Shown here piece by piece: positions 11,061 to 25,671 of a DNA stretch of 64,000 nucleotides (the stretch's first letter is position 1; each line of letters begins with the position of its first letter). The notes beneath the pieces are model-generated. The model ran no database searches, was not told the origin of the DNA, and saw only the letters and a list, made by a program, of their open reading frames with translations. Made by a program: the position numbers and the translations under genes. The DNA lies in the NCBI GenBank assembly GCA_030390025.1, contig CM059432.1:52640001-52704000 (forward strand), read 5' to 3'. The stretch comes from Squalus acanthias. Its lineage: Eukaryota.

Positions 11061-11557
11061 TAAGAACATAACATAAGAAATAGGAGCAGGATTAGGCCAT
11101 ATGGCCCTTCGAGCCTGCTCCGCCTTTCAATAAGATCATGATCTTTGACTTCAACTCCACTTTCCCGCGCGATCCCCCATATCCCTTGATTGCTAACTTA
11201 CCTGACGAAGGAGCGATAGCTCCGAAAGCTTGTAAAATTAAATAAATCTGTTGGACTATAACCTGGTGTTGTGCGACTTCTCATTTTTGTCCCCTAGAAT
11301 AGGTAGAGAATTTCAAAGACTCACAACCCTCTGAGTGAAGAAATTCCTCCTCATCTCTCTTAAATGGCTGACCCCTTATCCTGAGACTTTGCCCCCTAGT
11401 TCTAGACTCTCCAGCCAGGGGAAAACAACCTCTCAGCATCTACCCTGTCAATCTCCCTCAGAATCTTATGTTACAATGAGATCACCTCTCATTCTTCTCT
11501 CTGGGGTTTAGTATAGGCCCAATCTACTCGAGACCTCCACATAGGACAACCCTCTAA
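11061..11557 (-). mobile_element. CR1 3' end interrupted by the hammerhead-bearing fragment
   Basis: AACATAAGAAATAGGAGCAGG tail; the CCCTTGATT/CCCCTAG motif (contiguous at 28991-29006) is split here by 11192-11290. Confidence 0.88.
11198..11235 (+). ncRNA. Minimal type-I hammerhead ribozyme motif within a Penelope-like fragment (about 11192-11292)
   Basis: UUAC-CUGACGA-A-GGAGC(GAUA)GCUCC-GAAA-GCUU-GUAA, followed by the same downstream sequence (CTGTTGGACTATAACCTGGTGTTGTGCGAC) as the 14.8-kb element. Confidence 0.8.
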
Positions 11558-13237: not shown

Positions 13238-14315
13238 CTACTACTACTTCTTGGGCAGTCCCTCGGCACCGAGGATGACTTGCTTCCACACTAAAAATGA
13301 GTTCTCAGGTGACTGATGAGTTCAATGCGGGACCTACAGTCTCTGTCACAGGTGGGACAGACGGTGGTTGAAGGGGCGGGTGGGTGGGGTGCTTGGGTTG
13401 ACGTGCGCTCCTTCCGCTGTTTGCGCTTGGCTTCCGCTTGCTCCCGGCGAAGAGACTCGGTGTTCGGCGCCTTCTCGGATGCTTCTCCTCCACTTCGTGC
13501 GGTCTTGGGCCAGGGATTCCCAGGTGTCGGTGGGGATGTTGCACTTTTTCAAGGAGGCTTTGAGGGTGTCCTTGAAGCGTTTCCTCTGCCCACCTGGGGC
13601 TCTCATTGCAGTGTCAGAGCTCCGAGTAGAGCGCTTGTTTTGGGAGTCTTGTATCGGGCATGTGGATGATGTGGCCCATCCATCGGAGCTGATTGAGCAT
13701 GGTCAAAGCTTTGATGCTGGGGATGTTGGCCTGAGCGAGAACACCGACATTGGTGCGCCTATCTTGCCAATGGATTTGCAGGATCTTGCGGAGGCAGCGT
13801 TGGTGGTACCTCTCCAGTGCTTTGAGGTGCCTGCTGTACATGGTCTATGTCTGAAGCATACTCCGGAGGGCGGGTATCACTACTGCTCTGTAGACCATGA
13901 GCTTGGTGCTGGGTTTGAGGTCCTGGCATTCAAACACACTTCCTCAGGCGATTGAAGGCTGCACTGGCACACTGAAGGCGGTGTTGGACTTCATCATCGA
14001 CGTCTGCCCTTGTTGACAGGCTCCCAAGGTATGGAAAGTGGTCCACGTTGTCCAAGGCCTTGTCGTGGATTTTGATAATCGGGGGGTAGTACTGTGTGGC
14101 GAGGGCAGGTTGGTAGAGGACCTTTGTCTTACGGATGTTTACTGTAAGGCCCATGCTCTCGTACGCTTCGGTAAAGGTGTTGACGATGGTTTGGAGTTCG
14201 ACCTCCGAGTGTGCGCAGACGCAAGAGTCGTCTGCATACTGTAATTCGACGACAGAGGATGGGATGACTCTGACTGGAGGTGACGGAGGTTGAACAGTTT
14301 CCCGTTTGTTCTGTA
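13238..14315 (-). mobile_element. RTE-clade LINE 3' portion
   Basis: GLTVNIRKTKVL, FPYLGS, QLRWMGHIIHMPDTRLPKQALYSEL, GGQRKRFKDTLK; short trinucleotide tail (TAC)n at 13237-13248. Confidence 0.92.
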
Positions 14316-14674
14316 CCGTTGCTGGATAACTAGTACTTTAAGGAATATAAAAATGAAACCAAACACCAATGATAGGACACAAAAAAAAGTGTTTATTTGT
14401 TTGCCGTTCTTTTGGTTTTGCTTCAACAAATTGCTGTCATTTACTATTGCTACTCCCGGTGACATAGCTCTACTTAACCAGCTAGCGTTAATAAATTTAA
14501 TGTAAGGTAACGAGAGGGAACTCTGAACTCTTAAAACCTCCCTTTCAGAATTGTATGTTCAAATTGTTTTTCTTTGAATTATGAGTTTGTAGTTGGACCA
14601 TAGAAATTTTCAAAATTTGTTGGTCTGCTGAAGCTTAATAACGAAGTACTTAACACCACTGCTACCTTAGCTAT

Positions 14675-14921
14675 TGAGAGGTCGCACAACACCAGGTTAT
14701 AGTCCAACAGTTTTATTTTAACTCACAAGCTTTCGGAGTTACAACTCCTTCGTCAGGTGAAGTGAGGAGATACAGAAGCTGTATCTCCTCACTTCACCTG
14801 ACGAAGGAGTTGTAACTCCGAAAGCTTGTGAGTTAAAATAAAACTGTTGGACTATAACCTGGTGTTGTGCGACCTCTCAATTTTGTCCACCCCAGTCCAA
14901 CACCGGCATCTCCGCATCATG
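14675..14921. mobile_element. Young Penelope-like pLTR insertion in inverted (palindromic) configuration
   Basis: Perfect 103-bp arms 14673-14775 and 14779-14881 around an AAG loop; direct repeat ACCTTAGCTAT at 14664-14674 and 14922-14932; arms carry a hammerhead core followed by an A-rich tract. Confidence 0.85.
14793..14832 (+). ncRNA. Minimal type-I hammerhead ribozyme motif (mirror copy on minus strand at 14722-14761)
   Basis: UUCAC-CUGACGA-A-GGAGU(UGUA)ACUCC-GAAA-GCUU-GUGAG: intact core, 5-bp stem II, 5-bp stem I, palindromic AGCU helix III. Confidence 0.8.
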
Positions 14922-16523
14922 ACCTTAGCTATAACATTGAAATATTTAATACGAGAACAATCTCGGCTAGTGTTCCACAAATTCTGATACTGTCACTCAT
15001 TACTTATAGCTCAATTCTCCTTTACTTCAAAAAACATGCAAAATATATGTATATTGCTTGGTTAAGCAGCTTGTTTCAAACTGCGCAAGTGCTAGAATTA
15101 AGCTTTTTCCATTCAATTTTTTAAAAAGCTGAAATACTTCTTTTTTCTTTGTGATTTTCAAAGGTTTCAGCTTGCTCAAGTTACTCAGTTACAGTGCTTA
15201 CATGCCTTTTCAAGTAACATTACCCCATTCTCCTGGTGTCGTCAGGGTGAACGTGTCCTGAACTTAATTATGGCTTCGACTGCCTGATTTGAAATATTAC
15301 CTTTTTGTCTTGAGCGATGAATAGGATGGGTGGCCTATTGACTCAAAATTACAAGGATGCAGAACATTGTTGGATGCAGAACATTGTTGTATAACTGTTC
15401 ACTCTTGAACAAAACAAAGCAGCTTGGTCCATTCTGACAGACAACCGGCCCATTACTAACAGGATGTTGATGGTTATTTCCCCACTGCCTTTTCTCCATG
15501 ATTCTTTGCTTCCACTGTCAAACCTGGATGTTTCCTCAAGAATAAATATCTGCATCAAATTTGCAGTTTACAATTATTACTACATTGCTTGTTTTCATAC
15601 TTTGGTGTATGCTGAACTCTGGGGAAACAAAGGCCCGGATTTACTGGGGCCTATGCCCACGTACGCGCTATAAGTGCCTCGTAAGTTCTGGGTTTTCACA
15701 TGCGCTGCACATGCACGAATACCTGGCACTTGCGATCTGTGAAGAATCTTCTTGACAGATCCTCCACATCCCCGGGAAATGGACATCCGCTGGCGGAGAG
15801 TTGGCCTGTTTGCCCATTAATTTTAAACATGTAATTGTTTTCATTTCGTGATAAAATGTATTTTTTGGGTTATTCCTGGACCATCTACCTGGTGCGTAGA
15901 TTTATTGCGGTTCAGAGGCATCCGCCCATGGGAAGCCTCCGACCGCAAATTGAGGCTCAAAATCTTCAATTTAACTCTGATTTTTTCATGTTTTTTCATT
16001 CCATCTAATAGTTTATTTCAAGGCTGTTATCCAAGAAATGCCAGCCTTCTCGCTGATTTTAGTTTATATTGCAATCTGAAGAGGCAAGTAATGAAATAAA
16101 TCAAAGTTTAATTGCAGGTCAGAATAGTTTTGGGATTACAAGCCTTATTTGAATTTACTGTTAATTGTTTCAGTTTGAAACTTGCTTTCTCTGTTTTTCA
16201 CGTTGTTGGTCAGTAACATCTAGATCAGCTATCTGTAAAGGTTGCAGTGATGTCTTACTACACAGGAAAGGAATCAAACACTTTTCTACAGTTTTATGCT
16301 TTAAGCAAAGATTGGTTACTGCAAATTACTGATCTGAATATCCTTGTGTATAATACAGTATGAGCTCTCATGTATGCATAATCTAATCCCTTGGTATTAA
16401 AGCACAAATATGTTTTAATGTCCTAAATTTAATCTTGTAAAAGTCATACCTGCCGATTTTTTAAATTTCCTGTTTTTTTAATTCTTTGCTTCTGAATGTA
16501 ACAAATTCAGGTCTGCTTGTAGG

Positions 16524-23738: not shown

Positions 23739-23918
23739 ATGAACTATGTTGGACAGTTATTGGTAACAGTCAAGGAACTGTATAAGGGATTGAATCCTGC
23801 AACACTCTCTGGATGCATAGATGTGATTGTGGTCCAACAGCAAGACCGCACTTACCAATGCTCACCATTTCATGTTCGATTTGGAAAGCTAGGCGTACTT
23901 CGGTCAAAGGAAAATGTG
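23739..23918 (+). CDS. LPIN2: Lipin-2 exon with canonical ATG (exon starts 23730); N-Lip [32 protein letters not shown]...[18 protein letters not shown]
   Basis: Polypyrimidine tract and CAG acceptor ending 23729; ACCATG; hallmark lipin N-terminus ([15 protein letters not shown]); donor GTG|GTAAGT at 23919. Confidence 0.97.
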
Positions 23919-25671
23919 GTAAGTCTCCAATTATGTTTAGAAATGTATATAATGTTGAAGGCAGTGAATGAATGAATGCTACTTGAGCCAATGTATTCAT
24001 GCATTTGTCATTTTATATCAATCTACCATAATTGTGCAATGCAGTGTTAATCCGACAGTAAAGTTATATATCCCATTATGATGGGTATTATGTTGTTCGC
24101 TTTTGATATTACGCCAGTTACATATTCACATGTATTTTTCAAAACTGAAAGGTTCCGAGGCTTTGCTATCTCCATGCTGAAGATAGAGAAGCCCCAAAAA
24201 GACCACTGAAAAGTGGGTACAAAGCAAAACCTGAAATTTCAAAATCTTCTGCTAGTATTATATTTAGCATGGAGAGAGAGATCTGACTTTTGTTCTGTCA
24301 TTATTAAACTGAAAGGATTCAGAAAATTCAGGGATGATAAATATCCATCTGGCCCATCCCTCTAGTACATTATCTCTTGCATCACCACATCTAATTTGTA
24401 TTTTATGTTTTTCTGTCTCTATTACCTTGCTTAGCAGGTTATTCCAAACCTGGGAATATACAGGATCAGAAAAAGACTATCTAGCTATGTTTGGCTGGGC
24501 CCAAAGTTCTCCCTTTTGAATCTGCTGACCCCCATCCATCTCAACTGTCTCCCAGAGTGTTATTCCACACTATCCCCTCTCTAGTGTCAAGTAGTTAAAT
24601 CAAAACTGGCTGTCCACCTTTCCTCTTCTGAACTCTGGTCCACGTCCTCACGAGGTGTAGTACTCGGCCATGTCTCCTAGGACGGTCCCAGGCTCGATCC
24701 CTAGTTCGCTGATCTCAGGCAGGGAAACAGCTGGCAAAGGATAATAGAAATTGACGGTGTTCCTGCTCCTGAGCTCTATTTTGTTGAACAGCCAGAACAT
24801 CAAATGCTGTGCTGAAATTTTATAAAAGTCAATAGGTTTGACCTGGTTGCTTCATTTTGATGCCTTTGGGGCTGGTTTTCCAGCCATTCAGAAACCAATT
24901 TTGAAACCCTGGAGTCATTGGAAAACAGACATAGAACTTGCGCTCTCTTTTTTTCTCTGTTTAGAAAAAAGTAAAGTTGAAAAAGTAGAAGGCAAATTGA
25001 AGGAAAGAAAAGCTGGGACAAGAAGTAAAATATTTAAAATGTCCCTTTCTGGTTGATTGGCATTGCATTAACAATTATCACATTAAAAGGGTACAAATAC
25101 TCTTCATTACCAGCCCTAACTTTCTGCTGTGGGTTTAATAGGGAATTCATGTGCAAATCCAGCAAGCTCTTAAAAAAATAATGGGGAGGCTAAGGACAAG
25201 ATGCCGTTCGGAGCCCCGTAAATCAAGCAGCAAGTTCTGGAGATTCACAACTCCGTGTATCACTTATATCCTGAACTTTCTGGCTGATTTGTGCATTAAT
25301 AATGGCGTGTGTTGTTAACACGCCGTTATTTTTCCAGAAAGATTTGGCCCATTATTTTTTTTTCCTGCTCACAGATGGCTTATTGATATTTGAAATTGTT
25401 TGCTGTTTGGAGGTGGGGGGGATAAAAAGCGCACTCATCACAAGAATGTAATATATTCTTATCCAGTTGCAAAAGCATCTGTTTTTAGTTTTGCATAATG
25501 AATATATGAAGTATAAGTTAATATGAAGAACTTTGCCAAATTGAAATACAAATACAAAATGCACTGCACCAAAATGGTGCCAAAGGCTAAATGTGTCATT
25601 TCTGTTAAAATCTTAAACTGTACATGACGTGGAAAATTTCTCCAGTTTCTCCGATCTCCCCTCATGCCCCC

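Follow-up and report, generated by a model that had tools for sequence, protein, structure and literature searches.

Penelope-like elements (PLEs) that carry an endonuclease (EN+ PLEs) leave insertions of a characteristic form. Passages of Arkhipova et al. (2013, PMC3846280) describe an inverted pseudo-long terminal repeat (pLTR), a 31-bp tail on one of the inverted pLTRs and a target-site duplication (TSD); they also report TATATATA followed 20 bp later by TCACT, and ascribe palindromes at inverted junctions to self-priming. Parts of Craig et al. (2021, PMC8557442) describe an inverted, 5'-truncated copy together with a 30-40-bp tail, often at one end only, and depict this layout for EN+ PLEs in general. 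In target-primed reverse transcription (TPRT) in vitro with the Poseidon PLE of Anolis carolinensis, two adjacent reverse transcription start sites marked the limits of the tail, cleavage and extension took place on both target strands, and hammerhead ribozyme catalysis was dispensable for insertion (Frangieh et al. 2024, PMC11167929). Here we analyzed 64,000 nucleotides of the Squalus acanthias genome (assembly GCA_030390025.1, contig CM059432.1, positions 52,640,001 to 52,704,000 of the forward strand; hereafter the window) that contain a short palindromic insert with hammerhead motifs. The 258 bp at 14664-14921 consist of this insert (247 bp, with no open reading frame [ORF]) and one copy of its flanking repeat. 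We read them as the by-product of one recent retrotransposition of an active EN+ PLE, rather than as a gene or a device in their own right (probability about 0.93). The locus is an ordinary, very young insertion of a hammerhead-bearing PLE end in the mirror-image-plus-tail form that had already been described.

An inverted-repeat search of the window recovered two arms of 103 nt each, 100% complementary and separated by a 3-nt gap (AAG), and an unpaired stretch of 40 nt lies between the right arm and the right flanking repeat (Table 1). The flanking direct repeats are 11 nt long and identical (ACCTTAGCTAT; family D3, 100%). The final 2 nt of the left repeat (AT, 14673-14674) double as the first 2 nt of the arm, and the right repeat opens with ACC, just as the sequence beyond the tail does in longer copies of the element (ACCACT...). 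Because the repeat borders overlap the arm and the element in this way, the true TSD length is 6 to 11 bp.

To place the insert among alleles, we aligned contigs of four public runs (X1, X5, X6 and X7) to window positions 14200-15400. One contig from run X1, which derives from the same organism (1201 nt, depth 7.13), joined 14286-14663 to 14922-15400 at adjacent contig positions 381/382. It was missing exactly the insert and one repeat copy, so that a single ACCTTAGCTAT remained. The contig also showed several base differences from the window, an additional TTA at 14409 and one 17-bp tandem unit fewer at 15355, and because of these other differences we assign it to another haplotype. Thus, the insertion is real and polymorphic, and the activity of its PLE subfamily is recent enough for copies still to be polymorphic. 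The first-pass annotation of this DNA had described the palindrome with its 103-nt arms, AAG centre, 40-nt tail, 11-bp repeats and one hammerhead motif per strand, had interpreted it as a recent, ORF-less, PLE-derived insertion whose 5' segment is inverted, with a TSD and with minimal hammerheads on both strands, and had proposed looking for an empty allele. All of these features were found again, the interpretation is supported, and the empty allele exists. Runs X5, X6 and X7 yielded no contig across the insertion site or on the unique left flank and are uninformative about the allele carried.

Two further features of the flanks emerged from the same alignments. Window positions 15355-15388 are a perfect tandem duplication of a 17-mer (GGATGCAGAACATTGTT), of which the empty-allele haplotype has one unit; this adds a further small polymorphism in linkage with the insertion. 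Positions 14200-14322 had very high contig depth in all four runs, with common loose ends at 14268, 14272 and 14315, which points to another high-copy repeat to the left of the unique flank.

The right arm and its tail (14779-14921) had at least 920 first-look candidates in the 3.7-Gb assembly. All 40 of the candidates that were scored were 99-100% identical to it, and three matched at 100% over all 143 nt. Longer copies revealed the element to which this end belongs. All 13 of those examined extend upstream as ...TATATATGCTTTGACG(A/T)TT before element position 1, with ...GACGATT immediately 5' of that position, and 5 of the 13 extend downstream of ...CATCATG as ACCACTATCGACACC... The longer copies carry TATATAT, 22 nt and then TCACT, an initiator-like (Inr-like) sequence that occupies element positions 11-15.

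At locus L015, the 143-nt end is present twice in the same orientation, at a distance of 3115 bp, with an open frame of 916 codons in between; this is the partial tandem arrangement that defines pLTRs in EN+ PLEs. The first Met of the frame is the ATG that closes the tail. The frame matched the reverse transcriptase family RVT_1 (36.3 bits, E 6.3e-9; cut-off 29.6 bits) and contains YIDD. Near its end we read by eye VVYLIRC-x10-WYIGET with an upstream CxxxxCxxC, a putative GIY-YIG-like end that also has a match to the GIY-YIG family (E 2.2e-4) slightly below the cut-off. The predicted organization of L015 is that of an endonuclease-bearing PLE with pLTRs, and its ORF is apparently intact. The right arm and tail of the insert are therefore 143 nt of a PLE that end with the start codon of its ORF and include the region of its minimal hammerhead; the left arm is the same PLE sequence, inverted, minus the final 40 nt.

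Table 1. Features of the insert and of the neighbouring gene in the window
Feature	Positions	Strand	Remarks
Left TSD copy, ACCTTAGCTAT	14664..14674		Exact repeat; single copy in empty allele
Tail-less inverted arm, PLE element positions 103 to 1	14673..14775	-	Outer end within AATTTT run
Minimal hammerhead motif of inverted arm	14722..14756	-	Exact match, 0 expected by chance
3-nt centre, AAG	14776..14778		AA could extend inverted arm; G templated by neither arm
Direct arm, PLE element positions 1-103	14779..14881	+	Inr-like TCACT retained at 14789-14793; upstream TATATAT of longer copies absent
Minimal hammerhead motif of direct arm	14798..14832	+	Exact match
40-nt PLE tail, on + arm only	14882..14921	+	Ends in ATG (14919-14921), the PLE ORF start codon in full-length copies
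Right TSD copy	14922..14932		Exact repeat; empty-allele junction
First coding exon of lipin gene (MNYVGQL...)	23739..23933	+	Translation matches Lipin_N positions 1-65, 97.3 bits

Each arm carries one hammerhead motif, a 35-nt string (CTGACGAAGGAGTTGTAACTCCGAAAGCTTGTGAG) that occurred once on each strand of the window, with none expected from 100 shuffles. On the + strand it consists of the CUGACGA box, an extra A, a 5-bp helix II (GGAGT and ACTCC in the DNA) with a UGUA loop, GAAA, a palindromic AGCU as helix III, U17 and GUGAG of helix I. Cleavage is predicted to fall after 14827 by standard hammerhead numbering, in which U17 follows A15.1-G-C-U16.1. CUGANGA and GAAA boxes in the correct order and spacing had 3 matches in the window, compared with 0.07 expected. 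Minimal hammerhead ribozymes (min-HHRs) in the pLTRs of metazoan PLEs, as set out in passages of Cervera and de la Pena (2014, PMC4209133), combine the two boxes CUGANGA and GAAA with a G10.1-C11.1 pair and with a base left unpaired between positions 9 and 10.1. These passages also list a long helix II, a helix I of 4-5 bp and a palindromic AGCU that replaces helix III and implies a dimer. The insert motif, which reads CUGACGA-A-G...C-GAAA-GC-U, has every one of the listed features. According to parts of PMC4209133 and PMC11167929, published min-HHRs cleave weakly and need a dimer or a protein.

To look for conservation of pairing, we aligned 23 rows, namely 20 stem-II variants hand-picked from the first 100 pattern matches and three other copies, a set that is not a random sample. 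In this alignment, 87.8% of helix cells were paired, as against 25-54% when the partner strand was slid. In two of ten helix pairs both partners changed, from C-G to U-A with U-G pairs as intermediates: the helix I variant is an older copy in the window at 11194-11237, and the helix II variant is the subfamily of the window insert. For these non-random rows, the covariation score was reached in 1 of 500 shuffles and the count of two-sided changes in 27 of 500. Covariation in the helices thus offers modest support for a putative hammerhead. The older copy belongs to a PLE end at window positions 11193-11292 on the + strand that is 87% identical to the young end. Its helix I (GUAA/UUAC) and helix II (GGAGC-GAUA-GCUCC) have both been kept paired by compensatory changes; the tail is truncated, and no inverted partner was present within the BLAST hits.

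A change from U to C at core position U4 would be expected to inactivate the hammerhead. Many young copies have exactly this change, with CCGACGA in place of CUGACGA: a 28-mer containing it had 830 exact matches, compared with 1,233 for a 29-mer that runs from helix II through the 3' strand of helix I. It is found in about two thirds of the youngest subfamily (for example, L021:403-545, L022 and L027), and such copies have their own TSDs. The youngest subfamily therefore seems to have amplified with its catalytic core altered, in line with the dispensability of hammerhead catalysis for insertion in vitro (PMC11167929).

We then asked how often this arrangement recurs in the genome. An inverted arm adjoined 9 of the 40 best genome matches. 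At all 10 palindromic loci examined, the window included, the flanking repeats differed from locus to locus and were 6-13 bp long. Their centres mostly differed as well: AAG, AAT, GATT, ATA and ATT were present, while other loci had arms that overlapped by 1-2 nt or a junction lying about 33 or about 230 nt further upstream. Twelve loci matched a pattern built around the window centre, with spacers AATT (six loci), AAT or ATT (three), GATT, AAG and ATA. A min-HHR pattern that fixed only the boxes and GAAAGCTNGTG had 47,985 genome matches, compared with 4 for the reversed control. Among neighbour pairs within 6 kb, 21 of 24 in the young subfamily (taken from the first 100 of its 1,233 exact copies) and 26 of 34 across all families were head-to-head.

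The 21 head-to-head young-subfamily pairs had motif spacings of 36-5176 nt, and the value of 80 seen in the window occurred in none of them. In 20 pairs that were chosen irrespective of their centre, an ungapped method gave arms of 74-892 nt and spacers of 0 to about 3500 nt (0-7 nt in eight pairs, 21 nt in one and at least 100 nt in 11). The arm end itself occurred 20,054 times in the genome, and 8,591 of these occurrences run exactly into the tail. Hundreds to thousands of other PLE insertions in this genome are head-to-head and one-tailed, with differing centres and TSDs. The insert in the window is a small, fresh example of the standard landing form of the element, with a hairpin that is rebuilt at each event and not copied. 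A preferred junction at element position 1, which might mark an RNA 5' end, had been considered on the strength of 7 of the 9 palindromic best matches and of the 12 pattern matches. We rejected it as selection bias, given the range of spacings among the 21 pairs and the position of TCACT at 11-15 and not at 1.

The tail was distributed by a strict rule. Among the first 100 listed arm ends, it was present on exactly one arm in 27 of 28 head-to-head pairs, on neither in one and on both in none; in the separately fetched set, 19 of 20 pairs had it on one arm. The outer end of the tail-less arm always lay in the AATTTT run, at positions 96-112, and the tail-bearing arm ended at 135-152. The outer end of each arm adjoined a copy of the target repeat. 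To compare arm lengths, we mapped the pairs onto one natural 3115-nt period and excluded L045, in which one end is truncated. The arms differed by more than 50 nt in 13 pairs, and the tail-less arm was the longer one in 11 of these (L029, L030, L032-L035, L047, L048, L070, L072 and L075) and the tail-bearing arm in two (L046 and L073). The association of the longer arm with the missing tail is not stated in the passages of the PLE literature consulted for comparison.

How the two arms come to face each other is less clear than what they are, and neither of the two models considered below accounts for everything. The explanation to which we give slightly less than an even chance is that each end of the target break primes a cDNA on PLE RNA and that the two cDNAs are then joined 3' to 3'. 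A staggered endonuclease cut would leave two 3'-OH ends, each of which would prime reverse transcription on PLE RNA. One cDNA would begin at the distal start site and include the tail, and the other would begin at the proximal start site in the AAUUUU run and lack it. The two minus-strand cDNAs, ending near element position 1, would then be joined at their 3' ends by template switching. Start sites were used equally on both strands in vitro (Frangieh et al., PMC11167929), so a strict one-tail rule is not what this two-primer model predicts. It also has to accommodate the 8 of 20 pairs that are symmetric to within 7 nt; near-symmetric arms are unexpected from two independently truncated cDNAs, unless both stop at a common RNA end.

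Self-priming of a single cDNA, in which the strand folds back as Arkhipova et al. (2013) proposed, is a reasonable possibility, though one that we would not bet on. It has to cope with the finding that either arm can be the longer one among the 13 unequal pairs. The simple version, with the tail-bearing cDNA as the sole primary strand, was discarded because the tail-less arm is longer in 11 of the 13; the opposite strict rule fails as well, in the remaining two. A more specific version of two-ended priming is tentative and, we think, rather unlikely to hold as it stands: the stumps would be natural records of PLE integration, in which the proximal, tail-less cDNA leads, the distal, tail-bearing cDNA trails, and the two are joined 3' to 3'. 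It is suggested by the single tail per pair (27/28) and by arms that are equal to within a few bases or, where they differ by more than 50 nt, usually longer on the tail-less side (11/13), and it departs from the self-priming proposal in the literature. If it is true, a genome-wide census of stumps would yield the PLE integration pathway without biochemistry, and stumps transcribed from host genes would be ready-made triggers of double-stranded RNA (dsRNA) against a still-active element.

At the RNA level, the transcript of either strand is predicted to fold into a perfect 103-bp hairpin (-198.2 or -205.6 kcal/mol), and the hammerhead-like fold of the 62-nt core is predicted at -10.2 kcal/mol. 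Since the hairpin is far more stable, the ribozyme would be masked, in agreement with the self-masked ribozyme that the first-pass annotation had envisaged. The stump would have to do without its own promoter, since it was truncated downstream of TATATAT. A scan of L010 for bacterial-type promoters and terminators is inapplicable to a eukaryotic element and was disregarded. Read-through RNA from either side could feed dsRNA pathways, by analogy with inverted Penelope copies in Drosophila: in transformed Drosophila melanogaster, small interfering RNAs (siRNAs) map exactly to inverted Penelope regions, as stated in portions of a review by Evgen'ev (2013, PMC3681739). Run X6, which is RNA only by guess, gave a 230-nt contig at flank positions 15133-15362 that is not usable as evidence of transcription.

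The same annotation had placed the insert in the pre-mRNA of lipin-2, and this placement is unsupported: from the insertion it is another 8.8 kb downstream to where the lipin ORF starts (Table 1). The window has 635 ORFs of at least 45 codons, and the host gene was instead located by Pfam family searches of the genome. Two such searches placed lipin LNS2 exons just beyond the end of the window and found three lipin paralogues in the genome.

Several results weigh against the reading of the locus as a by-product of PLE retrotransposition. The model scan that had been suggested for the hammerhead matched none of the Rfam hammerhead models at the gathering threshold on the window, and none at E<=10 on 14600-15000 (401 nt) or on the arm at 14779-14860 (82 nt). 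Because no Rfam hammerhead model scores, the label "hammerhead" rests on the published min-HHR descriptor and not on Rfam. The last 173 residues of the L015 ORF scored 21.9 bits (E 2.2e-4) against GIY-YIG (PF01541), 0.7 bit short of the cut-off of 22.6. In addition, the palindrome itself is spanned by no contig or read of the four public runs, so that the filled allele is seen only in the assembly; we attribute this to the breaking of k-mer contigs in a high-copy repeat. The gap in coverage, together with the empty allele in the only run that covers the flanks and with the trouble that PLE inverted structures give to assemblers (passages of PMC8557442), is what could suggest a long-read fold-back chimera, with no palindrome present in the animal. 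We give next to no credence to this suggestion. A chimera would not produce an exact 11-bp duplication that is single in the empty allele, and the duplication and the empty allele together rule it out as the origin of the insert. All 10 loci examined and 19 of 20 fetched pairs share this architecture and have proper TSDs, and the structure agrees with published PLE insertions (passages of PMC3846280).

The first-pass annotation had also raised the possibility of a mobile ribozyme-hairpin family, and this reading is not supported. The unit does recur at many loci with different TSDs, but the centres, spacers and arm lengths vary from copy to copy, and the head-to-head, one-tail layout also holds for arms of 74 to about 900 nt and for older PLE families. 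For these reasons we regard the recurring structures as repeated by-products of PLE integration and consider it very unlikely that a palindromic master is transcribed and retrotransposed whole by the PLE machinery, with the window copy as a daughter. The recurrence itself would suit such a master, as would the six loci that have both a common AATT spacer and the CCGACGA core change on both arms. Yet centres vary among copies that are otherwise 99-100% identical, and none of the 21 head-to-head pairs has the window spacing. A master marked by AATT and CCGACGA was ruled out because CCGACGA is a subfamily marker, with its 830 exact matches in singles and in pairs of every spacing and arrangement. 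Four of the six AATT loci lie in a satellite with a 67-bp period and may be one event, and mutations in the template would necessarily appear on both arms, however the arms arise. A deletion at the centre was considered as the explanation for L007 compared with L023-L026, which have common flanks, and was set aside because the flanks are this 67-bp-period satellite, so that one event is not demonstrable. A different suggestion, that the insert is a domesticated hairpin RNA gene (a precursor of the microRNA [miRNA] or siRNA type) or a regulatory element of lipin, is extremely improbable. Models of long-hairpin miRNAs do score on it (MIR821, 120.6 bits; mir-4079, 34.9; mir-1759, 34.6), and the site is upstream of a lipin gene. 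However, these scores are far under the gathering thresholds of 249, 62 and 58, respectively, and reflect only the perfect stem; all Rfam matches to long-hairpin miRNAs and small nucleolar RNAs were sub-threshold and were set aside as stem artefacts. The insertion is, moreover, polymorphic and absent from another haplotype, and its 100% identity to other fresh copies leaves no time for selection. None of the listed public runs is recorded as RNA.

Set beside the described systems, the window contains a head-to-head, 5'-truncated inverted copy, a 40-nt tail at one end, and a TSD with its empty site. The insert shares its head-to-head layout, one-end tail, short TSD and junction palindrome with the EN+ PLE insertions in the relevant passages of PMC3846280 and PMC8557442, and its source pLTR, like those of published EN+ PLEs in these passages, has TATATAT, TCACT about 20 nt further on and an ORF start inside the pLTR or tail. 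It departs from the insertions described there in that the direct copy is cut to 143 nt; the resulting 247-bp, near-perfect, ORF-less hairpin is an extreme of size and not a new architecture. Every structural feature has already been published in the parts of PMC3846280, PMC8557442, PMC4209133 and PMC11167929 used here, and so have dsRNA and siRNAs from inverted Penelope copies (parts of PMC3681739). As in Poseidon (PMC11167929), the putative start sites are downstream of the hammerhead, the tail is the sequence between them and the start-site sequence is AC-rich. The Poseidon start sites, however, are 111-118 bp into the ORF, whereas the distal site here would coincide with the start codon.

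Some min-HHRs of pLTRs occur as close pairs on opposite strands (passages of PMC4209133). In the insert the two motifs are on opposite strands, so that one transcript would hold one sense motif plus its full antisense. The likeness to rearranged Drosophila Penelope copies (parts of PMC3681739) is that inverted PLE copies are predicted to give dsRNA, with a different organism and PLE family.

Twin priming of LINE-1 also gives an inverted 5' segment and TSDs and uses both ends of the target break as primers. There, the inverted segment mostly copies another region of the RNA, nearer its 5' end, and the joint is marked by a small deletion or duplication. By contrast, both arms of the insert copy one stretch, which makes them a palindrome, and their two defined starting points are separated by 40 nt. 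Animal non-LTR retrozymes are non-autonomous, hammerhead-bearing and PLE-linked, with direct tandem units that yield circular RNAs. We rejected a retrozyme because the insert lacks a direct tandem and consists of one inverted pair flanked by TSDs. A miniature inverted-repeat transposable element or fold-back DNA transposon was likewise rejected, as the arms are a PLE pLTR end, the ends are asymmetric (one tail) and the arms of different copies range from 74 to 892 nt.

The insert alone matters little, being one of very many PLE insertions in a repeat-rich genome. Perfect palindromes of about 100 bp near genes are nevertheless fragile, cruciform-prone and hard to assemble, and they should be annotated as PLE stumps and not as novel RNA genes. 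The regularities across copies, namely a single tail per pair, the usually greater length of the tail-less arm and the altered core of a large subfamily, constrain models of the poorly understood integration of PLEs.

Additional observations concern the wider distribution of the element. Unrelated sequence of about 2.2 kb interrupts each of two long PLE copies (L047:1510-3780 and L048:2230-4379) at one and the same element position (unit ~1704/1844) and could be a nested element or a subfamily-specific piece. In runs X7-X24, from seven other organisms, 7-17% of the sampled words of the 1.2-kb stretch were present. Run X7, the one of these that was aligned, had high depth on the PLE part and on the 14200-14322 repeat, and a contig of depth ~3 at the right flank (15022-15180). 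The PLE end seems to be common to related species. Finally, structurally different PLE insertions (L007, L013 and L023-L026, on unplaced contigs C2055, C1857, C53 and C1571) are found at the same AC-rich target (..CCATCAAACAC..) within a satellite whose period is about 67 bp. This shared target could reflect target preference or co-amplification with the satellite, and it resembles the AC-rich sequence beside the reverse transcription start site of the element.

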